Position numbers and translations under genes: made by a program
Shown: in pieces, positions 16,670 to 32,598 of the stretch
Layout: every line of letters starts with the position of its first letter
How positions within the stretch are numbered: the stretch's first letter is position 1
Source of the DNA: Nanobdellota archaeon
GTDB lineage: Archaea; Nanobdellota; Nanobdellia; Pacearchaeales; GW2011-AR1
NCBI GenBank assembly: GCA_038044985.1
Contig: JBBSYY010000012.1
Coordinates: forward strand, 5,973-69,972
Direction of reading: 5' to 3'
DNA: 64,000 nucleotides
Notes under the pieces: generated by a model
Database searches by the model: none
Told to the model about the DNA's origin: nothing
The model's input: the letters and a program-made list of their open reading frames with translations, nothing else

Positions 16670-16886
16670 TTTTTTAGTAACGTAAGCCCCTATTTCTTGC
16701 TTGCTGTTGCTATCTTCTAGTTCTTTATTAATTATTTTTTGTTCTCAATTAGATTTTATTTTTTTTATTAATACCTGCTAACTCAACTTGAGAGCTATAG
16801 CTACTCATTACTCTATTATTTTCATTAAGTTTAATATTACTAATATCATCATTCATTTTTTCTATTTTTATTTTTTAGATATGGGA

Positions 16887-17414: not shown

Positions 17415-17649
17415 CAAGATTCTAGAAAACCACGCACTTTAGTGCGTGGGAATCTTGAGCACCTCAAGAATTCTGACAATTGAATTCTTGATGGTCATCA
17501 GGAATTTTATTCCTGAGACAAGAAAATTTCTTACAAAGGAAATTTTCTGTACAGAAAATTCCAAACAACAAAAGGAATTTTCTTGCATCCAAAAGTCCTA
17601 AACAAACCTCGGCTTTTAAGCCGAGGTAAAACTCAAGGACTTTTTGATT
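17415..17649. other. Array of at least 7 consecutive perfect stem-loops inside the r-protein operon (between rpl29 and SUI1)
   Basis: Stems verified by hand. They are 17415-22/17450-57 (enclosing ccacgcac-ttta-gtgcgtgg), 17453-59/17463-69, 17465-73/17482-90, 17498-505/17509-16, 17521-30/17539-48, 17553-62/17574-83 and 17591-99/17636-44 (enclosing cctcggctt-tt-aagccgagg). Confidence 0.85.
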
Positions 17650-17822
17650 TTATTAAATGTTAGCAATCTTGCAATTGTTTTTTTTAATTCTCTAATTTTT
17701 GTTTTTCCACCTTTAGTCAACTTAACTCTTTCTCTGATTAATTCATTTTTTAATTCTTTAATTTTTTCTTTTATTTCATTTACAGCCATTTTTGAAATAT
17801 CTTTTGATTTTAATATTGCCAT
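17616..17822 (-). CDS. rpl29: 50S ribosomal protein uL29
   Basis: 68 aa with the helical L29 pattern (KELKNELIRERVKLTKGG). The stop codon (17616-17618) lies in the loop of the GC-rich hairpin. Confidence 0.85.
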   Translation of the reverse strand: MAILKSKDISKMAVNEIKEKIKELKNELIRERVKLTKGGKTKIRELKKTIARLLTFNKIKKSLSFTSA

Positions 17823-18006
17823 CTTGTTAAGTTTTGGTTTACTTAAAGATTCAGAAAATTTTTCATGTTAAAATTTTCTGCGCTCAAAAATCTTTTGATT
17901 TTTGTTGTTTTTAAAACCATCTATAAATTTTAGTTTTAGGTAATCAAAGATTTTTAATCTTTTAGTCTTTATCACCATATTTAATAATTTTTATTTAATA
18001 AATTTA

Positions 18007-18786
18007 TCATTCTTTTGATTTTATATCAATAATTTCTTGAGGAGCTTCTTTAATATCTTTTTCCATCGGCTTTTTTATATCCTTATTTTTCACTTTTTCT
18101 TTTTTCTCTTCAGTTTCTTTGATTTTTTCTTCAACTTTTTTTTCGGGTTTTTCTTTTTTTTCCTGAATGCTTTCTTTGATTTTTTCTTTTACCAATTCAT
18201 TAATCTCAATTTTATCATAAATTCTAGCCCATGGGGGCATAATAGCAACTTTCACTCCAATAACTCCGCTTTTTGTTAGTGCTGTTGATTGCGCTCTATC
18301 AACTTCTTTTCTTGAATCTCCAGCTTTCTTTAAATAACCTTCTGAAAATCTCCATGATTTAGCTCTATCACTAGGCAGTTTTCCGCTTAATCTTATTTCA
18401 CAACCTAAAACTCCGGCAGCCATTATTTCTTGCAATTTTTTATAAGCAATTACTTTAAACTTCAAATTACCAGTTCTTTCTAAAGCAAGTGCGATCTCAT
18501 CGGCAACTGTTTGTGCGTCAAACAAAGGATCTTTAATTTCTTTTATTTCAATGTGTGGGTTTTCTAGTTTAAATCTTTTTTTTAAAATTTCTGTTAAATC
18601 TTCAATTTTCCCTCCCCCCCTACCTATAACTAAACCAGGTTTACTAGTAGAAATAATTATTTTCTCTCCGACTGGCGTATACTCAATGTTCAATTTACTA
18701 ATTTTTCCTCTTCCTAGATCCCTTTTAATATATTCTTTAATTCCAAACTCTTCTTTCTTCAGTTTTATAAATTTTTGTTCTTCCAT
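18007..18786 (-). CDS. rps3: 30S ribosomal protein uS3 with a Lys/Glu-rich C-terminal tail
   Basis: KH domain (GLVIGRGGGKIEDL) plus S3 C-terminal domain, then about 60 aa of KE-rich tail. It is in a non-canonical position, after rps5. Confidence 0.9.
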   Translation of the reverse strand: MEEQKFIKLKKEEFGIKEYIKRDLGRGKISKLNIEYTPVGEKIIISTSKPGLVIGRGGGKIEDLTEILKKRFKLENPHIEIKEIKDPLFDAQTVADEIALALERTGNLKFKVIAYKKLQEIMAAGVLGCEIRLSGKLPSDRAKSWRFSEGYLKKAGDSRKEVDRAQSTALTKSGVIGVKVAIMPPWARIYDKIEINELVKEKIKESIQEKKEKPEKKVEEKIKETEEKKEKVKNKDIKKPMEKDIKEAPQEIIDIKSKE

Positions 18787-18788
18787 TT

Positions 18789-19214
18789 TTAATTAGGTTC
18801 CTCCCACATTCCATTTAATTGCAGCATTTTTAACAATTTTGGATATCTTGAGTCAGAAGATTTATATATATTATAACGAACAACTTTCCCAAAATCATTT
18901 AAAAATCCTAACGAGATAACACGATCTTCAAAAATTAGTTTTTCTTTTAAAATTCTATAAGCTATTATTTTATCATCAGCTATTTTAGTCAGAAATTCTT
19001 TAACACCATAGATTTCAGATACTTTATTCTGTAAGATAACCTCATAAAATTCTTTTTTATTTTCTTTAATAATTCCAGAATAAACCATTTGCTTACTTAT
19101 TGTTTCTAAAGTTACTAAACTTTTATGTTCAACTATTACTTTTTTTCCAATTAAATTTTCTAGTTCTTCATGAATTCTAGGTTTTTCATATATAATTGCT
19201 TTTTGCATTTTCAT
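18789..19214 (-). CDS. Operon-embedded orphan ORF O9 (141 aa)
   Basis: Starts at the base immediately after the rps5 stop and ends 2 nt before the rps3 start. I recognise no family. Confidence 0.65.
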   Translation of the reverse strand: MKMQKAIIYEKPRIHEELENLIGKKVIVEHKSLVTLETISKQMVYSGIIKENKKEFYEVILQNKVSEIYGVKEFLTKIADDKIIAYRILKEKLIFEDRVISLGFLNDFGKVVRYNIYKSSDSRYPKLLKMLQLNGMWEEPN

Positions 19215-19940
19215 TTACATCTCCATAGTCTTTTTTAAAGCATTAATACAAGCCTTTGCTAAATTTATAGTTGTTCTTTTCTGCCCATCTGTATAACTAT
19301 AAACATCTTTTATTCCAGATATTCTTAAAATTTTCTTTAGCTCATCTCCAATGACTAATCCTGTACCTTGCGGGGCTGGAATTAATTTAACCTTACAACT
19401 CCCACATTTTCCCTCAACAACAAATGGAACTGTATGCGATTCTCCACAATTACAATCAAAACTACCACAAGCCCTTTTAATTTTAATAAGATTAAGTTTA
19501 GCTTTTCTTAATGCTTTTGCGTTTGCTGGCAAAGTTTCTTTTGCTTTTCCATATCCAATACCAATATAACCATCGCTTCCTACAACAAGTGCACATGAGA
19601 AGGTTGGAACATTTCCTTCAGCAGTTTTTCTTTGAGTTTGTCTCCAAGCTCTTCTTTTTCCACCGCCAAATTTTCCTTTTGCCTGTCCGATATTAAGGAT
19701 TTCTGACTTTAGCCCCAATAATGAATCAACAATTTCTGGCTCTAATATTCTATATTTCAACACTTCATCAATTTCTTTAATTTTTCCTTCTTTCACAAGT
19801 TTGCCAAGTTTTGTTTTTGGATTCCACTCTTCTAATTTTTTAATTTTTTGTTCTATCGCTCTATCTTCTCTGATTTTTTTAAAGTCTCTAGTTTTCCAAG
19901 CTTCATTCATTTTTTTATTTAATCCAATTTGTTTTTTCAT
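19215..19940 (-). CDS. rps5: 30S ribosomal protein uS5
   Basis: S5 dsRBD and C-terminal domain motifs (VVGSDGYIGIGYGKAKE; APQGTGLV). Confidence 0.9.
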   Translation of the reverse strand: MKKQIGLNKKMNEAWKTRDFKKIREDRAIEQKIKKLEEWNPKTKLGKLVKEGKIKEIDEVLKYRILEPEIVDSLLGLKSEILNIGQAKGKFGGGKRRAWRQTQRKTAEGNVPTFSCALVVGSDGYIGIGYGKAKETLPANAKALRKAKLNLIKIKRACGSFDCNCGESHTVPFVVEGKCGSCKVKLIPAPQGTGLVIGDELKKILRISGIKDVYSYTDGQKRTTINLAKACINALKKTMEM

Positions 19941-19942
19941 TG

Positions 19943-20245
19943 TTATTTTAATACTTTATATTTATATTTATATTTATTTAAAAAATCTTTAATTAAATCA
20001 CTGTCTAAAGCAACAGTCCAATACTCTTTCACTGGTTTATTTGGAACCCCTATAACATAATAATTTTTTGTTTCAGATAAATTAGTAACATTAAACTTTT
20101 TAGCTATTTCATGGAAAACATCGATATCACTAACCTGTATCATTCTTTTATGTGGCCAAAATACTAATTTATCTTCATTTGATATTTTATCCTCTAAATA
20201 TTTTCTACATCTTTGTCCAGCTTCAGTTTTATCCATCATTACCAT
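19943..20245 (-). CDS. Operon-embedded orphan ORF O8 (100 aa)
   Basis: 1-nt gap after the rpl18 stop and 2-nt gap before the rps5 start. I recognise no family. Confidence 0.65.
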   Translation of the reverse strand: MVMMDKTEAGQRCRKYLEDKISNEDKLVFWPHKRMIQVSDIDVFHEIAKKFNVTNLSETKNYYVIGVPNKPVKEYWTVALDSDLIKDFLNKYKYKYKVLK

Positions 20246-20246
20246 T

Positions 20247-20726
20247 TTACTTTACCTTTTCAATTTCATTTTTAACTTTATTAAAAAAATCATATCTTTG
20301 AATTTTTTCATTGTCAGGGAAGACTTTTTCGTTACAAGGGATATTTAATCCAGCATCTCTAGCTCCTTTAACTATGGCATAAACTCTTGAACCCTTTGTA
20401 TTTGGAATTAATCCAGAATCTAAAATGGCTTTTTTAATTTTTACTTTTTTTCCTATTAATAATCCAGCTAAATAACTTGCTGATAATGACTTTAAACTTC
20501 CGATTTTCTCTTTGGGCCATCCAAATTTCAGAAGTTCTTTAGTAGTTATCGTTTTTAAAACTTTGTCTTGTGCATGTTCACTTTCAGCAATCTGCAAAAT
20601 TATATACTTATTAGTTTTCCTAACAACTAATCTAGGAGAATTAGATTTAAGCAAAATTAATCTTTTTCTATAATTCGTTTTGCTTTCCCTTCTTCGTCTT
20701 TTATGCAATCTTCTTGGATGTTTCAT
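20247..20726 (-). CDS. rpl18: 50S ribosomal protein uL18
   Basis: RRRRESKTNYRKRL N-terminus and PRLVVRKTNKYI motif. Confidence 0.9.
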   Translation of the reverse strand: MKHPRRLHKRRRRESKTNYRKRLILLKSNSPRLVVRKTNKYIILQIAESEHAQDKVLKTITTKELLKFGWPKEKIGSLKSLSASYLAGLLIGKKVKIKKAILDSGLIPNTKGSRVYAIVKGARDAGLNIPCNEKVFPDNEKIQRYDFFNKVKNEIEKVK

Positions 20727-20731
20727 TTTAT

Positions 20732-21238
20732 CTACTGCTTGCTTCCTCTTAATTTTTTACTAACTTTCTCTTTAGTCTTTTTTTCAAATTCTTTTTCAGT
20801 TTGATATATTGGTTTAACAAAATTATCTGCTATAATTCCAATGCCATTTAAATATTCTCTAAAATTAGACTTGCTTTTAAACTCTTTCATTTTTATTTTT
20901 TTTCTTAATCTGATATATAACTCTTTATTGACAACCCCAACATTTTTTAATTCAATTAAATATTTCCTTAATTTCCTAGTTATCTTTACATATTCTTTTT
21001 TTCTATCTTTAATCTTCATTTTAATTTTTCCAGCCCCTCTTTTAGTTTTTCTTCTTCTTACCTTTTTTCTTCCTTTAACTGGTTTAATTGTTATTATCTC
21101 TTCTTGATATAATGTTTTAATGTCTTGTCTTGTAATAGCTTCTTTTATCTCAGCCAAATTTGCTTGATTAAAGACGATTCTATTTTTTCCAACACCCAAA
21201 ACCCTTGCAGCAAGCATCTTTTTCTTATTGAGGTTCAT
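20732..21238 (-). CDS. rpl19e: 50S ribosomal protein eL19
   Basis: KKMLAARVLGVGKNRI start and a basic central region typical of L19e. Confidence 0.9.
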   Translation of the reverse strand: MNLNKKKMLAARVLGVGKNRIVFNQANLAEIKEAITRQDIKTLYQEEIITIKPVKGRKKVRRRKTKRGAGKIKMKIKDRKKEYVKITRKLRKYLIELKNVGVVNKELYIRLRKKIKMKEFKSKSNFREYLNGIGIIADNFVKPIYQTEKEFEKKTKEKVSKKLRGSKQ

Positions 21239-21518
21239 TTTTATCTTTTGATAAGTTTATTTCTTGAATTATTTTGGCGCTTGCTACCATTTTTTCTAAG
21301 TTAGTTTTACATAAATTAATTGATCTATCAATTCTTATTTTTTCTTCATTTGATAATGTTTTTTTTCTTTTATCTAATAACTGATTGCATTCTCTATATG
21401 TATCTTCATAAAGTAGCTGATTAATTCTTAAAGCTTCTTCATAATTATCTCTACGAACTGCTTCAAAGAGTTTTTTATAAGTTTGCTCAATTTCTTCTTT
21501 ATTCATAGTATTATTCAT
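21225..21518 (-). CDS. Operon-embedded orphan ORF O7 (97 aa, helical)
   Basis: Overlaps the rpl32e end by 8 nt (or starts at the internal Met at 21506) and the rpl19e start by 14 nt. I recognise no family. Confidence 0.6.
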   Translation of the reverse strand: MNNTMNKEEIEQTYKKLFEAVRRDNYEEALRINQLLYEDTYRECNQLLDKRKKTLSNEEKIRIDRSINLCKTNLEKMVASAKIIQEINLSKDKNEPQ

Positions 21519-22095
21519 TTTTTTCCTCCATCTCTTCCTTTTTAATTTCCTGTTTATTTAAATTTGATTCAGTTTTCTCTTCAATTTTCTCCTCTAGTTT
21601 TTGATCAGTTTTTTCTTTTAGTTCTTCTTCTTTCTTTTCTTCAACTATTTTTTCCTTAACTACCATTTTCTTTTCTTTTTCAATTTTTTCTTCTTTTGTT
21701 TTTTTCTTTTTTTTCTCTAGTCCGGCCAAAAATTTTTTTGGATTAAGATTTAATAAATAAACTTTATTATGCAATGCGTATTCAGAAATCTCTTTCTTTT
21801 TCTTGTCTCCTATATTAGCTATTATCCCGATGTTATTTTCTCTAATTTTTTTTAAATCCTTAATATTATAAATCATAAATGGAAATTTTTTTTGACCATT
21901 TTTTTTTATTAATCCTCTTTCTTCCTTACTGCTTTTAAACCCAACCTTGACTTTTCTAAGTTTTCCCTTCATATTTAATCTAATTTTATTGTCTCTGCCT
22001 CTGGGTTTTCTATAGACTACTTTTTTCTTTCTTCTTAATCCTAGTTTTGAGTATTTATGAGAATCAACTACTCTAAATATTGTCTTTTTTGACAT
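21511..22095 (-). CDS. rpl32e: 50S ribosomal protein eL32 with a Lys/Glu-rich C-terminal extension
   Basis: L32e core (YRKPRGRDNKIR...) followed by an about 70-aa KE-rich tail. It starts directly after the rpl6 stop. Confidence 0.88.
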   Translation of the reverse strand: MSKKTIFRVVDSHKYSKLGLRRKKKVVYRKPRGRDNKIRLNMKGKLRKVKVGFKSSKEERGLIKKNGQKKFPFMIYNIKDLKKIRENNIGIIANIGDKKKKEISEYALHNKVYLLNLNPKKFLAGLEKKKKKTKEEKIEKEKKMVVKEKIVEEKKEEELKEKTDQKLEEKIEEKTESNLNKQEIKKEEMEEKNE

Positions 22096-22833
22096 TTACA
22101 AATAAACCCTCCCAGGTTTTTCAATTATGAAAATTCCGTCTTGATATATTCTCCTATCTTTATTTCTTATTTTAGTTCCTTTTTCAATATTAGTTGCTAT
22201 CTGCCCGGCTTTTTCAATATCAAAACTTTTTAATTCTACAATGTCCTTATCTATCTTAATTTCAACCTCAGGAACCGATTTTATTATTCTATCTTTATTT
22301 TCCCCTAAAAAGTTTTTAACAATAATTTCATTATTTTCTTTGTTGTAGATGACATTCATTGGAAAATGAACATTTGCGATCTGTAGTTTGTAGATAAATC
22401 CCTTTATTAGTCCATTAATCATATTTTTAATATGGGCTGAAAATGTTCCAAAAAGCCTTTTTTCAATTCTTCTATCTCTTTCAGAACTTATAATTATCTT
22501 ATTTACTTCTATTTTAAAATTAATTAAATCGTTTAGCTTTCTTTTCAATTCTTTATCATTTTTCCTGATAATTAAAAAATTTTCTCTGATCTCAACAGAA
22601 ATTTCTTTTGGTATTTCAATTTCTTCATATAATTTTTTCTGATTATCTTTTTTTCTAACTTTACTAATCTTAACCGATTTCCTTTGAGAGCTAGAACCAC
22701 CATCGCTTTCATTTGATTTGATATTATCGATAGTTTTTTTATCTAATCTTTCTTTATTTTGGTAGCTATTCTGGTTTATTTCAGCTTTACTAACTTTTCT
22801 TTGTTTTAAACTACTAATATTTTCTTCGGCCAT
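22096..22833 (-). CDS. rpl6: 50S ribosomal protein uL6 with an about 65-aa N-terminal extension
   Basis: Duplicated L6 alpha/beta domain motifs (FGTFSAHIKNMINGL; VHFPMNV). The start lies 1 nt after the rps8 stop. Confidence 0.88.
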   Translation of the reverse strand: MAEENISSLKQRKVSKAEINQNSYQNKERLDKKTIDNIKSNESDGGSSSQRKSVKISKVRKKDNQKKLYEEIEIPKEISVEIRENFLIIRKNDKELKRKLNDLINFKIEVNKIIISSERDRRIEKRLFGTFSAHIKNMINGLIKGFIYKLQIANVHFPMNVIYNKENNEIIVKNFLGENKDRIIKSVPEVEIKIDKDIVELKSFDIEKAGQIATNIEKGTKIRNKDRRIYQDGIFIIEKPGRVYL

Positions 22834-22834
22834 T

Positions 22835-23206
22835 TCAATACATATATGCTATTAAACATCCTCCTAAATTTTGTTCTTCGGCTTCAATATGTTTAACTAT
22901 CCCCTTATTTGTGGAAACTATAATAAAACCAAAATTTTTTGCTGGCAAAAATCTTCTTACATAAAATTTTATTTTTTTAACAGAAACTGTATATCTTGGT
23001 TTAATTACTTTAATCATATTTAAGTCTATTATTCTAACCTTTAACTCACTATCTTGAATTTTATAATCTAAATATCCAGATTCTTTTGCAATATCTAATA
23101 TACTTCTAAGTAATTTTGAATGCTTTTTTATATTTATTTCTGTTTTTTTTGCTCTTTTAGCATTCATTATTTCATTCAATCCATCAGCTACAATGTCTTG
23201 ACCCAT
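22835..23206 (-). CDS. rps8: 30S ribosomal protein uS8
   Basis: DIVADGLNEIMNA start and a GGCLIAYMY-type C-terminus. Confidence 0.9.
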   Translation of the reverse strand: MGQDIVADGLNEIMNAKRAKKTEINIKKHSKLLRSILDIAKESGYLDYKIQDSELKVRIIDLNMIKVIKPRYTVSVKKIKFYVRRFLPAKNFGFIIVSTNKGIVKHIEAEEQNLGGCLIAYMY

Positions 23207-23207
23207 T

Positions 23208-23438
23208 TTAAGAATATTTTTTAAAGCCTAATTCTTCAGCAATTTCTCTAAAGCAGTGCCTGCATAAATTTAATCCGTAAGAATTGATCATCGCGCCAAA
23301 TCTTCCACATCTTTCACATTTTTTCCTAGCTATCCCAGCACCTCTTTCTTTTGGTTTATTATGTTTTAAATACTTAGCTCTAATTGCAGGCTTTCCAGCA
23401 AGCTGTTTCAACATCTTTCTCCAATCACTTGCGGTCAT
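23208..23438 (-). CDS. rps14: 30S ribosomal protein uS14 (zinc type) with an N-terminal extension
   Basis: CERCGR...CRHCFRE zinc-ribbon S14 core. Confidence 0.85.
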
Positions 23439-23755
23439 TTTATTTCCTCCAATAGTTTATGATAATCTTTAGAATTTCTTTTGTAAGCATTTACTTCAAA
23501 ACTGTAGCCGTCAAGTCCCATATATCTAAACTCTCCAACGAATTTATCACTGACATTTTTATCATTAAAAGTATAAACCATTGTGTTAATACAACGTCCT
23601 GATATAACATCAAATACAATTTCCTCAGTAATACAAAGGACAGAACCACTCTTATTAACTCTAAATCTATCTCCAACTTTTACATCATTATCAATTATCA
23701 ATTTATACATTTCGCCAAGTCTTACATCTCTAGTTATTTGTTCTAATACCATCAC
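23435..23755 (-). CDS. Operon-embedded orphan ORF O6 (106 aa)
   Basis: 4-nt overlaps with both the rpl5 stop and the rps14 start. I recognise no family. Confidence 0.7.
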
Positions 23756-24393
23756 ACAATCTCCACCCCAAAATTTTTACTTAAAAAACTTACAATTTCT
23801 TCTTGACTAACCAATTGTTTTTTTGGCAATTTTCCACGCTTAATTTTTTTAAATTTAACCCTTTTCCCTCTTCTTTTAAAAACAATTCTTACTTCAAAGC
23901 CCAAAATACCAATATCTCTTTCATAATCTAATCCAGGCACTTCAATATATTCTTTAATACCAAAACAAAATTGATTTTCAGTTATTTGCTGTCTTTTTAT
24001 TGTATTGTCGAAGGCAGAAAAAAACCTTTTTAATAGTCCATATATTTTATCTTTATCGCGAATTGTAACCTTACACCCACTCTGTTTTCCAGGGCTAATC
24101 CCAAATTCAGGCACTCTTTTTGTAGATTTTTTGATATAAACTTTTTTGTTGGTTATTTTTTTCAATAATTTTACAGATTTTTCTAGTTTATCGTCTATCC
24201 CTCCGCAATGTAGGACTAATTTTTCTATCTCAACATCTCTCATTTTATTTTGCATTTTATTTTCATTTCTTGGTTTTGATAATTTCTTACTATCAGTAGT
24301 TTGAACTTCTGTTGCTTTTTTAGCTAATTCTTTTACCATAATATTTTGTTTATTATCAACATCCAAAATTTTCTGATTCTGTATTAGTTCCAT
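23752..24393 (-). CDS. rpl5: 50S ribosomal protein uL5 (possible N-terminal extension; alternative start near MRDVEIEK)
   Basis: L5 core motifs (LVLHCGG; GFEVRIVFKRRG). Confidence 0.88.
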   Translation of the reverse strand: MELIQNQKILDVDNKQNIMVKELAKKATEVQTTDSKKLSKPRNENKMQNKMRDVEIEKLVLHCGGIDDKLEKSVKLLKKITNKKVYIKKSTKRVPEFGISPGKQSGCKVTIRDKDKIYGLLKRFFSAFDNTIKRQQITENQFCFGIKEYIEVPGLDYERDIGILGFEVRIVFKRRGKRVKFKKIKRGKLPKKQLVSQEEIVSFLSKNFGVEIV

Positions 24394-24437
24394 TTTAAAA
24401 TTTCAGTTTTGTTATAACTTTTTTAAAAAGCTTCATC

Positions 24438-25085
24438 TTAAATTTCCTCCATCGCAATTATATTTTTAACCCAAACATTTATCTTTTTGCCAATGTTAAT
24501 TTTTGCAAGTTTTTTACCGCCTCTTTCAATAATATCCTCAATTTTTCCTTTTTGACCTATATGCTTGCCTCTTATAATGAACCCTATTTTCCCAACTTCC
24601 ATTTTAATTACCTTTTCAATATTTCTATTATTAAAATTAAAAACGACAGAGTCTCCAACATTCGCTTTTTCTTTATAAATAACATTTCTTCCATCAATTA
24701 AGTTTAGCTGAATTTTATTTCCTTTAATTATTTTTTTTCCAGTAATTTTTATAGTCTTTTTATCAAAATTGTCAGAAATATTATCGAGCATGATTTTTTT
24801 ATGTTTAGACAAACCAACCCTATAATTTTTATCATTTAATAAAAGAACATCAAATAATCTAAGGGGATAATTTGTTTCTGTAATAACTTTTCCATTAATT
24901 TTAATTTTTTTTTCTTTTAGTAAATTTTTTAATTCTTTTTTAGTCCTAACTAGTCCTAAAACATCTCTTACTACTATTATCAATGGGATAGAATTTTTTT
25001 GGTCGTGCGTACTTACAGCCAAATACTTTGTTCCTTTCCTTGGAACTGGCCAAAATTTTCCAATATTTTGTCTTTTAAGATGCAT
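24438..25085 (-). CDS. rps4e: 30S ribosomal protein eS4
   Basis: MHLKRQNIGKFWPVPRKGTKY start followed by S4 and KOW domains. Confidence 0.9.
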   Translation of the reverse strand: MHLKRQNIGKFWPVPRKGTKYLAVSTHDQKNSIPLIIVVRDVLGLVRTKKELKNLLKEKKIKINGKVITETNYPLRLFDVLLLNDKNYRVGLSKHKKIMLDNISDNFDKKTIKITGKKIIKGNKIQLNLIDGRNVIYKEKANVGDSVVFNFNNRNIEKVIKMEVGKIGFIIRGKHIGQKGKIEDIIERGGKKLAKINIGKKINVWVKNIIAMEEI

Positions 25086-25326
25086 ATTTTTTCTCCTGTT
25101 TTAATCTATCTAAAACTTTTTTCTCTAGAGCAAAAATTTTGATATCATCATCTTCTATTAAGTATCTTTGACCTTCTGCTAAATCTTCATACCTACTATA
25201 AAAATAACTGTCCTTGGATAATGGTATTTCATGATACTGATAAAACCCTTCTACAGATCCATAACTCTTTCTAATCTTTTTAGCAATAAATTTTAATGCT
25301 GTTTTTCTTAATTTTTTTATTAACAT
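25075..25326 (-). CDS. Operon-embedded orphan ORF O5 (83 aa)
   Basis: 9-nt gap after rpl24 and 11-nt overlap with the rps4e start. Carries a YEDLAEGQRYLIED motif shared with O10. Confidence 0.6.
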   Translation of the reverse strand: MLIKKLRKTALKFIAKKIRKSYGSVEGFYQYHEIPLSKDSYFYSRYEDLAEGQRYLIEDDDIKIFALEKKVLDRLKQEKKYAS

Positions 25327-25335
25327 TTTCTTACC

Positions 25336-25743
25336 TTATTTACTAATTGTTTTATCTCCTCCAGCTTTTCTTTCAAGGGACTCTTTTCTTTTTTTATCTT
25401 CTAAATTTAGTTCTTTAATTTGTAATTTTGATGGATCAAATTTAACTGCAATTTTTGTTCCATCTTTTTTGGTTCTATAAATTCCATCAATCGTTACTTT
25501 TAATTTTTTTAAATTAACTATATTCACTTTTCCTATTTTATCTTTAAACTCTCCCGCCAATACTTTAACTAAATCGTCCTTAACTACCGAAAAATTCCTC
25601 TTCCCATATTTTTTTCTCAGTTCTTTGCTTAAATTAACACTCATCATTTTTCTTCTAATATGCAAACTAGCATTATACCTATACTTTCTCTGCTTTCTAG
25701 GTTGTTTGCTTGCCTTCCAATGTTTTGAAAATTTTTTTTTCAT
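25336..25743 (-). CDS. rpl24: 50S ribosomal protein uL24
   Basis: KOW motif region (VVKDDLVKVLAGEFKDKIGKV) and a basic N-terminus. Confidence 0.9.
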   Translation of the reverse strand: MKKKFSKHWKASKQPRKQRKYRYNASLHIRRKMMSVNLSKELRKKYGKRNFSVVKDDLVKVLAGEFKDKIGKVNIVNLKKLKVTIDGIYRTKKDGTKIAVKFDPSKLQIKELNLEDKKRKESLERKAGGDKTISK

Positions 25744-25744
25744 C

Positions 25745-26119
25745 TTAAAAAGATTCCAACATTTTTACAGATTTAACAAGAAATTCTTTATATCTTTCTT
25801 TAGCTAAATCAAATAAAGATTGATAATAATCAGGAATTCCATTTTTTAAAAAAGAGGAGTTAAAATAAATAGAAGCAATTCTATCCAAACTTAATATGCC
25901 GTCAGCAAGGCTTTTTCCAACACGTTCAATGTCTCCTTGTTGAGCAAAAGCAGCTGATTCTATTGATGTAAAATTTATGAGACATAATTCTTCTAAATAA
26001 CTTCCCAGTCTTTTACTTATAAATTTCTGTTTAACTATATTGTTTATTCTGTTAGAATAATCTCTAAGATTATTTAATTCTCTTGTCATTAAATTATTAA
26101 TTTCATTATTCATTTTCAT
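25745..26119 (-). CDS. Operon-embedded orphan ORF O4 (124 aa, helical)
   Basis: 4-nt overlap with O3 and 1-nt gap before rpl24. A GAGGAAAG Shine-Dalgarno-like motif lies upstream of the ATG. Confidence 0.65.
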   Translation of the reverse strand: MKMNNEINNLMTRELNNLRDYSNRINNIVKQKFISKRLGSYLEELCLINFTSIESAAFAQQGDIERVGKSLADGILSLDRIASIYFNSSFLKNGIPDYYQSLFDLAKERYKEFLVKSVKMLESF

Positions 26120-26421
26120 GTTTTTCTTTCCTCAAAAATATTATCGCATTTATTTCTCAATTCAACATATTTTTCTGCATAAAGCCTTGGATTAAAAGAT
26201 AATCCCATTAAACCAGAACAATAATTCTTAAAAGCTTCATCGGTTTCTTCTACTTCCCAATAAGAAACTTTTCCTCTTCGTTCACTAAGATTTTGATCAT
26301 ATCCATCATCAACAACTATTGATGGGCTAACTATAGTTACTTCTTCATCATTGATATACACATCTAATGTTTTTATGCAAGATTCTATTTCTCTTATTAA
26401 TATTTTTTTTACGTCTTTCAT
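26116..26421 (-). CDS. Operon-embedded orphan ORF O3 (101 aa, acidic)
   Basis: 1-nt gap after the rpl14 stop and 4-nt overlap with the O4 start. Confidence 0.65.
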   Translation of the reverse strand: MKDVKKILIREIESCIKTLDVYINDEEVTIVSPSIVVDDGYDQNLSERRGKVSYWEVEETDEAFKNYCSGLMGLSFNPRLYAEKYVELRNKCDNIFEERKT

Positions 26422-26422
26422 T

Positions 26423-26824
26423 TTACATCACAAATTTAGCAATTTTACTTACAAATGGGTATCTGTCTGCGGCTTCTTTAGCAATTGGTCCTTTAATCTG
26501 CGTACCTTTTGTATTTCCTTTTTCGTCTTTTAATAAAACAACGGCATTGTTTGTAAAAGCAACTCTTTCTCCAGTTTTTCTTCTATATGACTTTTTCTGC
26601 CTTATTACAACTGCATCAAAAACCTCTCCAATCATTTCATGATTTCCTTTTCTTACAGATACTTTAACCCAATCACCAACTTTAGCATACTGCTGTCTAC
26701 CTCTTCTTGTTTTTCCACCTTTAACGCTAACTATTCTTACAACAGTTGCTCCACTGTTATCACTAGCTAAAACTAAACTTCCTAAATTCAATCCTCTAGT
26801 TATTTTTGCTGCAACGCCTTTCAT
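26423..26824 (-). CDS. rpl14: 50S ribosomal protein uL14
   Basis: L14 core runs from MKGVAAKITRGLNLGS onward. I chose the internal Met at 26824 because the longer ORF-track start (26887) would overlap rps17 by 53 nt. An AAGGAG motif lies upstream. Confidence 0.88.
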   Translation of the reverse strand: MKGVAAKITRGLNLGSLVLASDNSGATVVRIVSVKGGKTRRGRQQYAKVGDWVKVSVRKGNHEMIGEVFDAVVIRQKKSYRRKTGERVAFTNNAVVLLKDEKGNTKGTQIKGPIAKEAADRYPFVSKIAKFVM

Positions 26825-26834
26825 TTTAAAATTT

Positions 26835-27179
26835 TCATTCTCCTTTTTCCTTAGTTTTACTTTCTTTACCAACCTTTCTGACAACAATAAAATGAATTAT
26901 CTTGCTAATAGGCCTGCATTCTTTAATTTCAATATAATCTCCAATACTGATTTCTTTTGACATGCAATCAGGAAGTCTTGCATGAAGTTTTGTTTTCCTT
27001 TTAGCATATCTTTCATATTTTCTAACAAAAATTGTCCTTTCAAATTCAATTACAACCCTTTTTGGAAATTTCTTTCTTACAGTTCCATAAAAACTTCTAC
27101 CTCTAAGACTTATACTGCCATGTTTTGGACATGCAAAATCATTGCATTCCTTTTCCGTTATGTTTTTTTGTTCTGCCAT
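26835..27179 (-). CDS. rps17: 30S ribosomal protein uS17
   Basis: CPKHGSISLRGR...VVIEFER...IGDYIEIKECRPISK OB-fold S17 pattern. Confidence 0.9.
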   Translation of the reverse strand: MAEQKNITEKECNDFACPKHGSISLRGRSFYGTVRKKFPKRVVIEFERTIFVRKYERYAKRKTKLHARLPDCMSKEISIGDYIEIKECRPISKIIHFIVVRKVGKESKTKEKGE

Positions 27180-27186
27180 TTTAATT

Positions 27187-27441
27187 CTATATTCCTTTTA
27201 AATAATTTGGTAACCATTTATCAACTAATTCTTGATAGAGTTTTATTTTAACCTCAATATCATTATCATTTCTTACTCTAACAAAATCTTTTAATTCTAA
27301 TAGTCCTGCTCCAATATTGATCACTGCATCTTTTTTCCCAAGACTATAACTATTATCCCAAAAAAAATTGAAATCTTCTAAATATTTGTTTAACCCAATC
27401 AATAATGCATTTTTCCTTATTTCATAATTTTCAAATTTCAT
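27187..27441 (-). CDS. Operon-embedded orphan ORF O2 (84 aa)
   Basis: 8-nt gap after rpl22 and 7-nt gap before rps17. It occupies the slot where rps3-rpl29 normally sit. Confidence 0.6.
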   Translation of the reverse strand: MKFENYEIRKNALLIGLNKYLEDFNFFWDNSYSLGKKDAVINIGAGLLELKDFVRVRNDNDIEVKIKLYQELVDKWLPNYLKGI

Positions 27442-27449
27442 TTTAATTT

Positions 27450-28043
27450 TTATCTCAGATTAGGAACTAATTTAATTAAAACATGACTTCTCTTAAATCT
27501 CCCTTGCCCAAATCTTTTCTGTGGTTTAGAAGCAATATTAGCCATGCAAAAAATTTTAAATTTTTCTAATTCTAGCTCATTATAAATTGCATTTGCTCTT
27601 AAACTTTTTAATAATTTTAAAAATTCATTAACAGCATTTATAGGATATCTCCCTCTTCCAGAAGCGATACTAATTCCTTTTTTATGCGGTATTTCTCCTT
27701 TCATTGGAATGGCAATTTCTATTTTTTTGACTTTTTCAAGATTTCTAATAGACTGATCAATTTCTTTATTTCTGATAAAATTACAAACAGCAACAGCCTG
27801 TTTTGTAGAAATCCTCAAATCCTCTCCTTTAACAACAGCTTCTGTTTTTTTTATTCTTTTAATTTCTGCTTTAGGTTCTCTTTTTTCTTTAGTTTTTTCT
27901 TTTTTAATATCTAACTTATCGCCTTTATTATATTGAACCTCTGTTGCTTGCTTGGCGTTACTATAACTACTATTGCTAATTTTTTCTTCTTTAAAACTTT
28001 CTTTTATATTTCCTTTAATTTTATTATCTAATTTTTCATCCAT
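27450..28043 (-). CDS. rpl22: 50S ribosomal protein uL22 with an about 60-aa N-terminal extension
   Basis: L22 core (ISTKQAVAVCNFIR...GRGRYP...). The start lies 1 nt after the rps19 stop. Confidence 0.88.
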   Translation of the reverse strand: MDEKLDNKIKGNIKESFKEEKISNSSYSNAKQATEVQYNKGDKLDIKKEKTKEKREPKAEIKRIKKTEAVVKGEDLRISTKQAVAVCNFIRNKEIDQSIRNLEKVKKIEIAIPMKGEIPHKKGISIASGRGRYPINAVNEFLKLLKSLRANAIYNELELEKFKIFCMANIASKPQKRFGQGRFKRSHVLIKLVPNLR

Positions 28044-28044
28044 T

Positions 28045-28455
28045 TTATTTTACAGACTTAGATGCACTAGATCTTGTAGCGCCGATTCCAGCTGCGCCAT
28101 GTTTAACTTTAGATCGAGTAACTGAAAATTCTCCTAACCTATGACCCAACATTTCTTTTTCAATCTGAATAGGAACAAATGTCTTGCCATTATGAATATG
28201 TATTTTCATGCCTATCAATTGCGGAACAATAATAAGACTTCTTAAATGAGTCCTTATAAGTTTTTTATTCTCAATTTTTTTATCGCATCTTATAACAAAT
28301 TTCTGTATCTTGTCATATTGCCTTAATATAGTTCTTTTTTCGTTGCTTTTCAATAATTTTGCAAATTCTCTAATGTCCATTTTTTTTAATTCCTCTAGAG
28401 TGTTGCCTCTATATGTGAATTCCTTTTTCTTTATTTCAAATGTTTGATCTGTCAT
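28045..28455 (-). CDS. rps19: 30S ribosomal protein uS19
   Basis: HNGKTFVPIQI...GHRLGEFSVTR motif. Confidence 0.9.
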   Translation of the reverse strand: MTDQTFEIKKKEFTYRGNTLEELKKMDIREFAKLLKSNEKRTILRQYDKIQKFVIRCDKKIENKKLIRTHLRSLIIVPQLIGMKIHIHNGKTFVPIQIEKEMLGHRLGEFSVTRSKVKHGAAGIGATRSSASKSVK

Positions 28456-28598
28456 TTTTTATTTTTATTTTGTGTTTATTTGTTTACTTGATTAATAATC
28501 ATAAACCTATTAAGCGAGAACTTCTGTTCCAGCTTATCTAACTTATTATTAATCTTCATTATACGTTTTTTGTTTAATTTTTTATTTTTAAAATATTA

Positions 28599-29468
28599 TC
28601 ATACTAAAATTCCTTTCCCCCTGCCAGTCTTCCTAGGCCTTATATGGCCAACTTTTGCTCCTGGAGGAGCATTTCTTTTTGCTATTTTGCTTTTGATTCT
28701 TTTTCCTCTACCACTTCCAAAAGGATGGTCTACAATATTCATTTTTACTGCAGAGGTTCTATGCCATTTTCTTCCTACAGATTTCATTTTATAATATTTC
28801 TTGCCTGCTTTAACAAACGGTTTTATTATTCTGCCATCTCCTCCAACAACACCTATAATTGCTCTACAATTTTCATGCAGTTTTATCTTTCTTCTTTTAA
28901 CTTGTATTTCAACTTTATCATCTTTTGTTGTTATAATTCCAAAACTTCCAGAACTCCTAAAATACTTACCGCCATTTCCAGGAACAGCCTCAACATTAAA
29001 GACCGTCGTACCTTGCTTAATGTCTTTTAGTTTTAAAATATCCCCAGTTTCAGAAATTCTGCTTTCGGGCCTTTTTCCAATATAAATTTCTTTTCCCTCA
29101 TAAATACCATCAACAGCAGGCACGAAAAATCTTATTTTTTTATTTTTGTCTTTTTGTATATTAACATCTAATGAAGTTTGATCGCTCTTACTAACTTGCT
29201 GTTTATTTTTATTCTCAAGTTCTTTTTTAAAGCTAATAATATTTCTAACTTTTTCTTCTTTAGGATTAATACTACTTATATTACTGCTAACAACCTCAAT
29301 TTCAGCAAGAGGAGCTGTATGCCCAAGAGAATTAATTAACCTAATAACCTTACCGATACCTTCTATGTTTAGACTAGGGTAACTTATTTTATATATATAA
29401 GCTCTTGGTCTAACTCTATACGTTAAACTTCCTTTTCCTCTTGCTTGCGAATATATTCTTTTTCCCAT
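28599..29468 (-). CDS. rpl2: 50S ribosomal protein uL2 with an about 50-aa internal insertion
   Basis: L2 motifs (GHTAPLAEI; VDHPFGSGRG; PPGAKVGHI). A Lys/Asn/Ser-rich insert (ISSINPKEEK...QKDKNKK) lies between the N-terminal OB and SH3-like domains. Confidence 0.9.
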   Translation of the reverse strand: MGKRIYSQARGKGSLTYRVRPRAYIYKISYPSLNIEGIGKVIRLINSLGHTAPLAEIEVVSSNISSINPKEEKVRNIISFKKELENKNKQQVSKSDQTSLDVNIQKDKNKKIRFFVPAVDGIYEGKEIYIGKRPESRISETGDILKLKDIKQGTTVFNVEAVPGNGGKYFRSSGSFGIITTKDDKVEIQVKRRKIKLHENCRAIIGVVGGDGRIIKPFVKAGKKYYKMKSVGRKWHRTSAVKMNIVDHPFGSGRGKRIKSKIAKRNAPPGAKVGHIRPRKTGRGKGILV

Positions 29469-29469
29469 T

Positions 29470-29709
29470 TTATATCATTCCTAGTTTAGTAACAACATCA
29501 ATTGCAGGATCTCTTGCATTTAATTTAGCATAAACATACTTTTCATTTTTTCTTATTAAGCTATTAATTTTATCTACCTTAACATTAAACATATTCTCAA
29601 TTTCCTTTTTAATTTCATCTTTGGAATTTCTCATATCTGTCTTAAAAACCAAAGTATTATTAAGTTCGATTAGCCTAACTGCTTTTTCAGACATAACTAG
29701 TTTGAGCAT
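29470..29709 (-). CDS. rpl23: 50S ribosomal protein uL23
   Basis: L23 pattern (LVFKTDMRNSKDEIKKEIENMFNVKV). A GGGAGG Shine-Dalgarno-like motif lies upstream of the ATG. Confidence 0.88.
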   Translation of the reverse strand: MLKLVMSEKAVRLIELNNTLVFKTDMRNSKDEIKKEIENMFNVKVDKINSLIRKNEKYVYAKLNARDPAIDVVTKLGMI

Positions 29710-29853
29710 TTTTCCTCCCTGTTTATAGGCTTTTTATTTATTTTATTAGTAATCCTATAAAGATTAAGAATGCTAGAAACTCTATTGTTATTTCTTTCTC
29801 CAATATTACCTAAGTTTATTAATATTTTAATTATCATTTTAAGTTTTGGTTTT

Positions 29854-30672
29854 TTATTTCTCCTTACTATTTTCTTTAAAAAAATCTTCAAGTTCTTTAA
29901 TCGCATTTTCGCTAAACATAGTTAATCTTGCTCCGTTTTCGGCTAGATCATTCACACTTAATTTTTTAACTTTAATAGTTTCAATTCCTCTAATTTTCTT
30001 ATTTTCATCATTGCTTACGATAAACAATAATCCTGCATTTTTTTTATATTTCCTGCCCCTCATTTTTCCAATCCCGGCTCTCACCGTCTTTTTTTGTATA
30101 GCTATTCCATATAATTCGCCTAAAATTTTTTTTAAACTTTCCAATAATTCTTTTGTTTTTAGCTGAAAAATTTTATTTTCAACAACCAAAGGCAGCTTAT
30201 TATTAATTTTATTAAGATTGTTTAAAGAATCATATTTTTTCTTTAGCTCTTCAAAATTAGAAATATAACTTAATGCTGATAATAATGCTTTTTTTAGTTC
30301 TTTTTTATTTATTTTTTTTATTTTATAAAGCCCTCTTGGAGGGTGGGCTCTTCTACCCCCTCTTGCGAAAGGTACTATTGCTCCTTGCCATGAAAATTGA
30401 GTTCCTCTTCTCCAAAAAGCTTTTTTTGGTATTCTTGCAAGCCCTCTTCCTCTGTCAGATTTCCACGAATGTCTTTTATGTCTAACATTTCCACTTGCAG
30501 ATCTATCCATTCCAGCATAAAGCTTTGTAGAATAAGGGTGTTCTGCTCTATTATTCATCTTTTCAGCTTCAACAACTTTAAAAATAATATCTTCTCTTAT
30601 TGGTTCTTCGAATAATTCTGTCTCTATTTCTCTTATCTTTTCTCCATTAATATTTAAAATTGGGATTTTCAT
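29854..30672 (-). CDS. rpl4: 50S ribosomal protein uL4
   Basis: GRGLARIPK...GGRRAHPP motifs; AGGAG upstream of the ATG. Confidence 0.9.
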   Translation of the reverse strand: MKIPILNINGEKIREIETELFEEPIREDIIFKVVEAEKMNNRAEHPYSTKLYAGMDRSASGNVRHKRHSWKSDRGRGLARIPKKAFWRRGTQFSWQGAIVPFARGGRRAHPPRGLYKIKKINKKELKKALLSALSYISNFEELKKKYDSLNNLNKINNKLPLVVENKIFQLKTKELLESLKKILGELYGIAIQKKTVRAGIGKMRGRKYKKNAGLLFIVSNDENKKIRGIETIKVKKLSVNDLAENGARLTMFSENAIKELEDFFKENSKEK

Positions 30673-31118
30673 TTATATTTCTCCTGATCTTTTGCTAGTT
30701 CTGTTTCTAATCTATCTACATAGGCTTCCCCTCTTTCTAAAAATCTAGCCCAATCCACCTCGGCCATCAAATCTAATCCAGAAAAAGTATTTTCTAGATC
30801 ATGAAGAATAATCTCTGTTTTTATTTGATAATTTTCTAAAACCTTTCTATTTTCTTCTTCAGAAGGACTTACAACAACTAATGCTGTATTATTTTTTAAT
30901 TCTGAGCGATAATGATGACATAAAATAGCCTCTGTTAATAGAAACTTATCTGAATTATGATTAACATAACGATAAGGAGGTTCATTATCAAAAACCTTAG
31001 GCTTAGGCATCTTTCTAAAATTTCCATTTCTACTGATAATCTCTGCAAATCTATGCGATTCTTCTAAAGATCCTACTCCAAATAAAAACTTAGCTCTTAA
31101 TCTCTGTTCCATTTTCAT
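30669..31118 (-). CDS. Operon-embedded orphan ORF O1 (149 aa, net acidic)
   Basis: ATGA overlaps at both ends, verified by hand (rpl3 stop 31115-17 with O1 ATG 31116-18; O1 stop 30669-71 with rpl4 ATG 30670-72). I recognise no family. Confidence 0.7.
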   Translation of the reverse strand: MKMEQRLRAKFLFGVGSLEESHRFAEIISRNGNFRKMPKPKVFDNEPPYRYVNHNSDKFLLTEAILCHHYRSELKNNTALVVVSPSEEENRKVLENYQIKTEIILHDLENTFSGLDLMAEVDWARFLERGEAYVDRLETELAKDQEKYK

Positions 31119-32083
31119 CTCAACTCAATAAACTCATAATTTTTTTTAATTTGATCTTTTGAGGGTCTTAAGGAAACAGTTACAATTAATTGCCTTTTTG
31201 CAGGACCTTGAACACTTCCATAAATTAAAGCATAGTCTTCTTTTATTTTACCAAAATTTTTAAAACCTTGTTCAGGATTAATATCTTCTTCTTTAAGGTT
31301 AGAAATAAAAATGATTTTATTATTATAAATAACTCTAGTAAAATAACCCATCTGACCAGCCATCGGTTGTGTAAATTCAACTCTTGCTGGATGCCACGGC
31401 CCCCCTGACCCAGGCCCTCTTATTCCTTTTTCAGATTTATGGGCCTGCAAACTTAATCCGAATCTTTTAGTCGATCCTTGGAAGCCCTTTCCTTTTGTTA
31501 TTCCTCTAACATCAACTAAACCATCTTTTAAAAATTCTTTATTTAAAAAATCCACAATTCTTATTTCTTTATTTAAATTCTCTTTAATAAAATTTAATTT
31601 TTCTTCAATTGTTCCAGAAAGTCCAATTTCAGCAATATCAGGAGTTTTTTTAATTCCTGTTTTTTTAGTTTGAGAATAAATAACTACTCTAATATCATTA
31701 TATTTTCCTTTATATTTATCAAAATCAACTTTATTTTTTATTTGTTTAGGAAGTTTGATTTTCTTTTTTAATTCTTTATCTAAATTTTGATTTAAGATCC
31801 CTCCTATCAAATTATTATCTTTATAAAATCTGACTGATAAAATTTTTATTGTTGGAAACTCTATTATTGTAACGGGGATGGTAATCCTTTTTCCTTTTGT
31901 TAAAGAATTAGGAGTGTTATCTTTAACATAAGCAGAAGCCATTCCAACTTTATATCCTATAAATCCTAGTAATCCTAGATCTTTTCTAGAAAGAGAACTC
32001 CAGTTAACCCTAGGTAAAATCTTGTTGGCTTTTTTCCTAGGATAAAACTGCAAACTTCCATGCCGAATATGTCCGCGCCTCAT
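31115..32083 (-). CDS. rpl3: 50S ribosomal protein uL3
   Basis: MRRGHIRHGSLQFYPRKKA start and a GKGFQG motif. It is the first gene of the cluster, with about 500 nt of intergenic sequence upstream. Confidence 0.92.
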   Translation of the reverse strand: MRRGHIRHGSLQFYPRKKANKILPRVNWSSLSRKDLGLLGFIGYKVGMASAYVKDNTPNSLTKGKRITIPVTIIEFPTIKILSVRFYKDNNLIGGILNQNLDKELKKKIKLPKQIKNKVDFDKYKGKYNDIRVVIYSQTKKTGIKKTPDIAEIGLSGTIEEKLNFIKENLNKEIRIVDFLNKEFLKDGLVDVRGITKGKGFQGSTKRFGLSLQAHKSEKGIRGPGSGGPWHPARVEFTQPMAGQMGYFTRVIYNNKIIFISNLKEEDINPEQGFKNFGKIKEDYALIYGSVQGPAKRQLIVTVSLRPSKDQIKKNYEFIELR

Positions 32084-32598
32084 CTTATAGTTATTTAATT
32101 ATATTTTTTATTTTTGTTGATAATATATTAATAAAATAGCTAGTATTCCGTATTTAAGCAGTTTTAATACTTACTAATCTTATTAATTATATTAATATTC
32201 TTGCTAATTTATTAGTAATTTACAATAATAAGCCAGAACTAAATAAATTAGCTTTTGGACAATCGTAACTTAACAGCTATTAGTTTATTACCCTGATTAT
32301 TGCTTTAACTTCCCCTTACTAATAATTATTTTTCTTAATTATTAACTTGATAGCAAAAAAGCTAAGAACTAATGTTCTTGGGCCTGTTAGTAAAAACCAA
32401 CCGCTATCAAAAACCTATTTATAAGTTTCAGATTTATCTATATGTAAATTAGCAAGAAAAAAAGAGTTTTTAAAGATTTCGTTATTTCTAACACATCTAA
32501 TTATTAATCGAATAAGTTATTAATAATTTTTAATAGATAATCTAAAGGTAGTTTAATATTTTAGAAAAGCTTTTAACTTGGTTTTAAGAAGTTTGTAG

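Follow-up and report, generated by a model that had tools for sequence, protein, structure and literature searches.

We analysed a window of 64,000 nucleotides (nt) from a Nanobdellota archaeon (GenBank assembly GCA_038044985.1, contig JBBSYY010000012.1, positions 5,973 to 69,972), a low-GC (about 27%) DPANN archaeon of the Nanoarchaeota lineage, for which Woesearchaeota or Pacearchaeota are the public labels. The window contains a ribosomal-protein super-operon, and ten small orphan genes, designated O1 to O10, lie at junctions between its ribosomal genes. We conclude, with a probability of roughly 0.6, that recombination makes this operon a hot spot at which small accessory genes of many fast-evolving families would be acquired and lost, exchanged for others and duplicated where the stop of one ribosomal gene meets the start of the next. 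One of these families, named SF-A here, has expanded in this manner; among the window genes, O10 and the C-terminal part of O9 belong to it, as O3 probably and O6 perhaps does. The original prediction, made from the sequence of the window, had regarded the ten genes as divergent paralogues of a single small family inserted at many independent junctions. Its observation was confirmed in part, and its interpretation holds in part: multiplication into many junctions did take place for SF-A, but O1 to O10 do not form a single family.

Variation among related operons

The gene order of the operon is L3, O1, L4, L23, L2, S19, L22, O2, S17, L14, O3, O4, L24, O5, S4e, L5, O6, S14, S8, L6, L32e, O7, L19e, L18, O8, S5, O9, S3, L29, SUI1, L30, O10, L15 and SecY. 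The ten orphans (83–149 amino acids, aa) are all encoded on the operon strand and abut their neighbours or overlap them by a few bases. For comparison, 86 related operon fragments were fetched by an S4e scan of species-representative genomes and metagenomes. Ribosomal genes were identified by BLAST, and same-strand open reading frames (ORFs) of at least 35 aa in the gaps between them were called as orphans. The related loci are labelled L001, L004, L007, L089 and so on, which are not ribosomal proteins, and the orphan families or BLAST clusters F0, F2, F4 and so on. L007, like contigs identical to the window, comes from Hainich groundwater. The 232 inter-gene ORFs of, in all, 87 related operons fell into 159 BLAST clusters. 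Near-complete operons contained 0–12 orphans of at least 60 aa each, with 10 in the window; when all 232 ORFs were counted, the maximum was 20, in L001.

The window, L007 and L001 differ at no fewer than nine junctions, including non-homologous replacement at two of them, while the ribosomal proteins of L007 and L001 are 91% and 84% identical to those of the window. At L3/L4, the position of O1 is taken by the unrelated family F8 in L007, L001 and also L004, and at S5/S3 family F4 is found in L007 and L001 instead of O9. The L22/S17 junction holds O2 in the window, three other ORFs in L001 and nothing in L007 (5-nt spacer). The L24/S4e junction, occupied by O5 in the window, is empty in both relatives; L23/L2, S17/L14 and L6/L32e are empty in the window and filled in both. 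Insertion is ORF-precise, an empty site reading 'taaAatg' and a filled site 'taaGATG…TAAAatg', with the flanking ribosomal genes intact. This variation and the precision of insertion are directly visible in the operon sequences, and from the variation we infer events of gain, loss, replacement and duplication.

Use of the junctions is widespread, as 21 of the 25 junction types represented in at least 10 loci are occupied somewhere, the busiest being L14/L24 (18 families) and L30/L15 (13 families). Many families occur at more than one junction (F2, F4, F6, F7, F8, F11, F16, F18, F19, F21, F26, F30 and SF-A), and F2, F8 and F18 each have two paralogues within one operon. Genes resembling O8 were found at L18/S5, at L22/S17 (L004) and at S3/L29 (L089), those resembling O9 at S5/S3 and L23/L2, and those resembling O6 at L5/S14 and, in a single relative (L023), at L4/L23. 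A paralogue of O7 is present at L4/L23 in L001.

Where cassettes have been replaced, their flanks are 96–97% identical. Between the window and L007, the S3 protein is 100% and its DNA 99% identical, with a proportion of synonymous differences (pS) of 0.046, as opposed to 0.2–0.4 for neighbouring genes. This near-identity beside diverged neighbours indicates a recent recombination tract, and the tract adjoins the S5/S3 junction, at which the window and L007 carry different orphans. Together, the cassette flanks and the S3 tract point to homologous recombination through highly conserved ribosomal genes, which would most likely be the route of spread between genomes. Within an operon, genes would most likely spread by local duplication and through the microhomology that the near-identical stop/start junctions provide. 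The inserts would be expressed by read-through transcription and translational coupling.

Spread by dedicated mobile elements, i.e. free-standing homing-endonuclease genes or integron-like cassettes targeting conserved ribosomal genes, is the least probable of the explanations considered. Phage morons and free-standing homing-endonuclease genes are located between conserved phage genes, and the seg and mob genes of T4-like phages likewise lie between highly conserved essential genes. Like the orphans, they are small, diverse, fast-evolving ORFs with high turnover, set precisely between conserved genes. A 313-aa ORF with LAGLIDADG_3 and HTH_7 domains between L2 and S19 of L070, the sole nuclease-type insert among 150 orphans of relatives, would agree with such an origin. 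The window orphans, however, reside in a cellular chromosome, have spacers of 1–5 nt without evident promoters or terminators, and carry none of the homing-endonuclease domains LAGLIDADG, HNH, GIY-YIG and PD-(D/E)xK, the LAGLIDADG_3 domain of L070 being the only one detected among the 150 orphans of relatives. No nuclease, integrase or transposase domain was found in the window orphans or in the small orphans of relatives, and no PHROG or viral-contig matches were obtained. SF-A is absent from viral contigs (IMG/VR scan), and its predicted fold has no viral or nuclease neighbour. Integron cassettes resemble the orphans in being single-ORF units of variable content that are expressed from an upstream promoter, but the orphans are interleaved with essential genes and not stacked at one site. 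Neither direct or inverted DNA repeats bounding the inserts nor attC-like repeats were present in positions 15400–32100, and the inserted ORFs that were scanned held no integrase domain, a search that did not extend to the remainder of the genome. No second copy of the orphan families was found elsewhere in the 64-kb window or in 172 kb flanking the operons of relatives.

Coding status of the orphans

From the sequences we conclude that the small ORFs are real same-strand genes, belonging to several families without relation to each other. Among 176 gaps of 200–700 nt between ribosomal genes, 148 have a stop-free run over at least 80% of the gap in the sense direction, compared with 8 in the antisense direction, in a genome in which stop codons are frequent. 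On the strength of this asymmetry we reject chance ORFs in spacers, and we reject an assembly artefact because the arrangement recurs in independent assemblies from NCBI, ENA, JGI and Logan. Packing of the orphans equals that of the ribosomal genes in tightness (modal spacings +1 and −4 nt), and their GC content, overall and at third codon positions (GC3), is that of the neighbouring genes. For orphans held in common with relatives, the ratio of nonsynonymous to synonymous substitution rates (dN/dS) is 0.2–0.65, which is above that of ribosomal genes in the same comparison and below 1.

These values also bear on the idea that the ORFs are functionless filler, kept open because a premature stop would break the coupling to an essential downstream gene. 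Such filler would start and stop exactly at the stop and start of its neighbours, as the ORFs do, and it is consistent with their extreme divergence and turnover and with the relaxed constraint indicated by dN/dS of 0.4–0.65 for most of them. However, dN/dS is below 1 everywhere and only 0.23–0.31 for O3, and SF-A has a conserved, confidently predicted fold with invariant residues across 38 clusters. In addition, the frameshifted O10 ends 75 nt before L15, so the operon tolerates broken coupling at that junction. We consider filler quite improbable as a general explanation; it is unlikely for SF-A, and less so for the singletons.

The window orphans have no match in Pfam, PHROGs (none below E = 0.008), PADLOC or NCBIfam; one weak PADLOC match, to PglZ (16.5 bits), was obtained for protein P0022. 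Searching PDB sequences with the profiles of SF-A and of the O3, O4 and O8 families gave nothing meaningful, the best hit being O8 to 3nrk (E = 0.002). Among the 150 orphans of relatives scanned, Pfam domains occur only in the larger inserts, the small ones being without any. Enzyme inserts (>145 aa) were found in L013, L021, L025, L037, L058, L062, L079, L080 and others, with NTPase I-T, HAD, NUDIX, RNase T-like exonuclease, DUF362, methyltransferase, tRNA-editing and metallo-β-lactamase domains.

The SF-A family

SF-A is a family of approximately 90 aa without annotation (alignment A6), obtained by merging ten BLAST clusters with 16 members in iterated profile searches with shuffled decoys. 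In relatives, it occupies the junctions L30/L15, L6/L32e, L14/L24, L23/L2, L18/S5, S3/L29 and L2/S19, the 16 members lying at the first five of these. A profile search of 1.84 billion representative proteins recovered 38 clusters at 50% identity, all but one of which are 85–110 aa long and match approximately the full length of the profile, the residues G13, F16, E20, T32, Y47, Y74, Y77, L81 and W87 being invariant across clusters. The exception, protein P0035 of L093 (778 aa, CLIPPER_2 repeats), matches profile positions 18–51 seven times (E = 6e-7), which is probably a β-repeat coincidence.

With the 38-cluster alignment, AlphaFold gave a confident model (predicted local distance difference test, pLDDT, 92.7; predicted template modelling score, pTM, 0.82), the only one obtained in this study. 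The predicted fold combines five β-strands with a Tyr/Leu/Trp helix at the C-terminus, in which the pattern Y-x2-Y-x3-L-x3-G-L-W is conserved. Foldseek comparison of the model with PDB and BFVD revealed no significant neighbour (best E about 0.05, template modelling score (TM) < 0.5). The best neighbours, KA1, PC4/Sub1 and PUR-alpha, likewise have an antiparallel sheet packed by a C-terminal helix, but with TM of 0.31–0.43, E ≥ 0.05 and no sequence relationship this is a resemblance and not membership. SF-A also lacks Pfam matches and PDB sequence matches. Judging by its model, we regard it as a newly described family without a detectable structural relative.

Eight of the nine genomic contexts examined are inside ribosomal operons. 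In L089, four genes of the SF-A superfamily stand in tandem between L30 and L15 and a fifth at S3/L29; the same operon has an F86 gene at S5/S3, besides the gene resembling O8 that shares the S3/L29 junction. The ninth context is that of P0051 (L095), a member that is not part of a ribosomal operon and follows, on its downstream side, the C-terminus of a topoisomerase-like zinc-finger gene. SF-A is therefore not strictly confined to the operon.

Relationships among the window orphans

All ten ORFs were recovered on the minus strand at the expected places, together with every peptide string quoted in the original prediction. Smith-Waterman alignment of 12 proteins (O1–O10 and two nearby proteins without assigned function; 66 pairs, 20,000 shuffles) left 63 of the 66 pairs at chance. 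The pair O6–O9, whose tails had been aligned without gaps at 7 of 20 identical residues, an alignment that we confirmed by eye, was the only one to survive correction (z = 7, p = 4e-4, corrected 0.026). O3–O6 did not (corrected p = 0.59), and the product of 37617–38045, proposed as a further candidate, resembled none of the orphans. The second motif described for O5 and O10 is present, as (S)RYEDLAEGQRYLIE and (F)RFEDLAEGKIFLLD, but the similarity of the pair fails correction (p = 0.0047, corrected 0.31). At the DNA level, O5 and O10 have a stretch of 32 nt (14 aa) in common, 84% identical and encoding RFEDLAEG and RYEDLAEG, respectively. It is the sole DNA repeat of the operon that is not of low complexity, and either the transfer of a fragment or codon bias may account for it.

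The proposed signature, G-[LF]…Y-x-x-L, occurs in 5 of the 10 window orphans where 0.44 would be expected, an enrichment that is circular because the pattern was read off the same sequences. Across 113 orphan families without a window member, it was found 5 times against 5.2 expected (P = 0.60), and a looser form 14 times against 8.6 (P = 0.06). The common MKM start of O1, O4 and O9 is trivial, since MK is the commonest start in the operon (12 of 36 genes). A hidden Markov model of the C-terminal motif, built from tails picked by eye, recovered its own seeds only and was dropped as circular; it was replaced by a profile from independent database hits.

Profile comparisons gave a more differentiated picture. 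Family profiles built from relatives leave the window orphans in at least seven separate groups, and when they were compared by hhalign, only O3–O10, O9–O10 and, marginally, O6–O9 exceeded reversed decoys. O10 is clearly a member of SF-A, with a frameshift: after frame correction it matches the SF-A profile with E = 5.6e-17, and both frames match. Its orthologues in L004 and L007 are intact (87 aa), and the frameshift, which the loss of a single A in 'TTTTAAAGATGAT' would explain, marks either a pseudogene or a sequencing error.

O9 carries, as far as its sequence can tell, the C-terminal module of SF-A, i.e. the last strand and helix, tested as Y-x2-Y-x3-L-x3-G-[LI]-W. It scored 12.3 bits against the corresponding sub-profile, at its very C-terminus, with none of 1,830 shuffles reaching 6 bits and no other window orphan outside SF-A above 0.4 bits. 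Against the full profile the E value was 0.031, and hhalign gave scores of 24.7 and 21.2, compared with 16.6 and 17.2 for the best reversed decoys. The sole match of O9 among 5.8 billion proteins is a 99%-identical twin, and its single-sequence structure model (pLDDT 50.7) is too poor to use. O3 is probably a distant relative of SF-A: its family aligns with SF-A by hhalign over 66 collinear columns (E = 4.5e-4, probability 33%), and O3 itself matches the full profile with E = 0.24. The O3 family F5 is in turn linked to F4, which occupies other junctions (E = 1e-5 to 7e-5). O6 is possibly a relative, through its pairing with O9 and a marginal profile score only (family hhalign score 17.1, probability 2.4%, barely exceeding the best decoys of 16.6–17.2; E = 3 against the full profile). 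A Tyr-containing C-terminal helix, as proposed, thus does link some of the genes.

The remaining orphans, O1, O2, O4, O5, O7 and O8, showed no detectable relationship to SF-A or to each other on profile iteration, with full-profile scores at noise, and O5 did not match the SF-A profile despite the 14-aa stretch that it has in common with O10. Widening the SF-A profile with O3, O9, F17, F85 and F112 gained no further families, and the extended superfamily amounts to about 27 of the 232 operon orphans (12%). A common origin of all ten genes, multiplied into many junctions, is accordingly very improbable. Part of what such an origin would entail is realized in SF-A, with its many junctions, its tandem copies in L089 and its connections to O10, O9, O3 and perhaps O6, and the evolution of the orphans is fast enough (dN/dS up to 0.65) that homology could have decayed past detection. 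Against it stand the 63 pairs at chance, the six isolated orphans, the small share of the superfamily, the failure of the signature in independent families and the larger inserts of relatives, which are unrelated enzymes. O4 and O7 moreover look helical (judged from the alignment and the sequence, respectively), as opposed to the predicted β-sheet fold of SF-A.

Possible links to the ribosome

The main rival to our conclusion is that the orphans are lineage-specific ribosomal or ribosome-associated proteins, acting in assembly, hibernation or protection and made in step with ribosomes. The confinement of the families to ribosomal operons speaks for it, as does the stability of some positions. 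The O4 family, F0, is the most position-stable orphan and was found at L14/L24 in all eight operons that contain it, whose ribosomal proteins are only about 64% identical, and SF-A recurs at L30/L15 in lineages of both operon orders. There is also a precedent in the spc operon of Methanococcus, where ORFs at first unidentified were eventually recognised as S4e, L32e, L19e and an RNase P subunit. However, the median isoelectric point (pI) of the orphans is 6.5 as compared with 10.1 for the ribosomal proteins, and a pI above 9.5 was calculated for 10% of orphans versus 95% of ribosomal proteins. Presence, absence and non-homologous replacement vary among genomes with ribosomal proteins 84–91% identical, orphans are missing altogether from six complete operons of the sample, the clusters number 159 and are unrelated, and one SF-A member is encoded outside any ribosomal operon. 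The window orphans lack the hallmarks of ribosomal proteins, including any Pfam or NCBIfam match. We therefore hold this explanation to be unlikely. A bolder version, in which the orphans attach to ribosomes and either diversify them or shield them, for instance from host or viral factors that target the ribosome, and in which the operon is a dedicated recombination-driven diversification locus and not a passive landing pad, is somewhat less likely still.

We thus favour a recombination-driven hot spot for accessory genes of many families. The orphan proteins would not be core ribosomal proteins, but small binding proteins, co-expressed in abundance, whose accessory roles may lie in genetic conflict or ribosome modulation. 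Several points weigh against this conclusion. The recombination events were not seen directly, and the move from one junction to another needs an illegitimate step, which is inferred only. F0 is fixed at L14/L24 and SF-A at L30/L15 across distant lineages, a pattern that resembles a functional part of the operon passed on vertically more than it resembles cargo. The restriction of the families to the operon could be due to a functional tie with the ribosome instead of a mechanism of spread. The sequence sampled outside operons is modest (172 kb). Finally, homology beyond the reach of sequence comparison may unite more of the orphans, since only one fold was confidently predicted.

Comparison with known systems

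Archaeal S10, spc and alpha operons are known to contain embedded non-ribosomal genes, such as those for SUI1/aIF1, the RNase P subunit Rpp29, adk, cmk and secY, and the 'ORFa-e' of the Methanococcus spc operon. Like the orphans, these extra genes are co-transcribed and tightly packed, and some orphans (F0 at L14/L24) are similarly position-fixed across lineages. The known extra genes are, however, few, universal in large clades and members of recognised families, whereas the orphans number up to 20 per operon, form 159 clusters, vary between near-identical operons and lack Pfam or NCBIfam matches. Bacterial chromosomes have hot spots of horizontal gene transfer that are flanked by core genes, reportedly described by Oliveira, Touchon and Rocha in 2017. 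They resemble the present case in having variable genes between core genes, a cargo that differs between close relatives at one and the same site, and flanks conserved enough to serve as recombination arms. These hot spots are limited to few intergenic regions, mostly in the vicinity of tRNA genes or mobile elements, where they hold multi-gene islands; the orphans, in contrast, are single small ORFs in register with translational coupling at nearly every junction of one essential operon. Extra genes in ribosomal operons and core-gene-flanked hot spots are therefore known kinds, and what is new here is this variant and the SF-A family. A description of the phenomenon was not found in the open-access literature, to which our search was confined.

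Features of the window

The coordinates of the features are collected in Table 1. The 46-aa ORF in the L4/L23 spacer is uncertain, as it may be either a gene or a conserved stretch of spacer. In the window, L001, L004, L005, L007 and L011, the S3-L29-SUI1 block is placed between S5 and L30; in the distant relatives L052, L060, L062 and L070–L082 it has its usual archaeal place between L22 and S17, and its position in the window is a clade-specific rearrangement of the super-operon. Outside the operon, the window contains an ordinary cell-surface glycosylation cluster with few small ORFs without assigned function, comprising glycosyltransferases, sugar epimerases, a sulfotransferase with ATP-sulfurylase, a radical-SAM enzyme and a PMT-family transferase.

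Table 1. Positions of the genes and sequence features discussed in the text; coordinates refer to the window unless a related locus is named
Feature	Coordinates	Strand	Size	Place	Family and remarks
Ribosomal-protein super-operon	13972–32083	minus			From the ORF list, translations and BLAST against the operons of relatives
O1	30669–31118	minus	149 aa	L3/L4	Singleton; 4-nt overlap with the L3 stop and with the L4 start
O2	27187–27441	minus	84 aa	L22/S17	Singleton
O3	26116–26421	minus	101 aa	L14/L24	F5
O4	25745–26119	minus	124 aa	L14/L24	F0; dN/dS 0.43–0.51
O5	25075–25326	minus	83 aa	L24/S4e	Singleton; overlaps the S4e start
O6	23435–23752	minus	105 aa from ATG at 23752, or 106 aa from GTG at 23755	L5/S14	F6
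O7	21225–21518	minus	97 aa	L32e/L19e	F2
O8	19943–20245	minus	100 aa	L18/S5	F7
O9	18789–19214	minus	141 aa	S5/S3	F16 plus F48
O9 C-terminal module	18804–18884	minus	Residues 111–137	O9	...VVRYNIYKSSDSRYPKLLKMLQLNGMW; matches the last strand and helix of SF-A
O10	about 15938–16200	minus		L30/L15	SF-A gene with −1 frameshift near 16075, inside 15938–16227; outside the interval of the original prediction
46-aa ORF	29697–29837	minus	46 aa	145-nt L4/L23 spacer	Relatives in L007 and L021 (clusters F15 and F93)
S3	18007–18786				Compared with L007 14072–14851
S3-L29-SUI1 block	16887–18786			S5 to L30	
Stretch common to O5 and O10	16149–16180 and 25164–25195		32 nt		
Glycosylation cluster	39350–60744				
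Tandem SF-A-superfamily genes	L089 (GCA_018303785.1) 1746–4759			L30/L15	
LAGLIDADG_3 and HTH_7 ORF	L070 929–1870		313 aa	L2/S19	
P0051	L095 228–527				SF-A

Implications

The S10-spc-alpha super-operon is a textbook example of near-invariant prokaryotic gene order; its proteins are concatenated for phylogeny and serve as markers for genome binning. The original prediction held that its pattern of insertion is hard to explain by ordinary operon evolution, and this stands, the effect being stronger than could be seen from the window alone. That nearly all junctions of the operon take in, swap and lose small genes in one archaeal lineage challenges the idea of an operon closed to insertion. In practical terms, annotation that relies on synteny and the extraction of markers should not take it for granted that ribosomal genes are neighbours in these genomes. 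The operons also yield abundant lineage-specific small proteins for study in organisms in which most genes are 'hypothetical'. If the orphans did diversify or protect ribosomes, an arms race in episymbiotic archaea would revolve around translation. More generally, the operon offers a concrete case of how tiny genomes with few promoters may express new genes, by in-register insertion into a strongly expressed operon.

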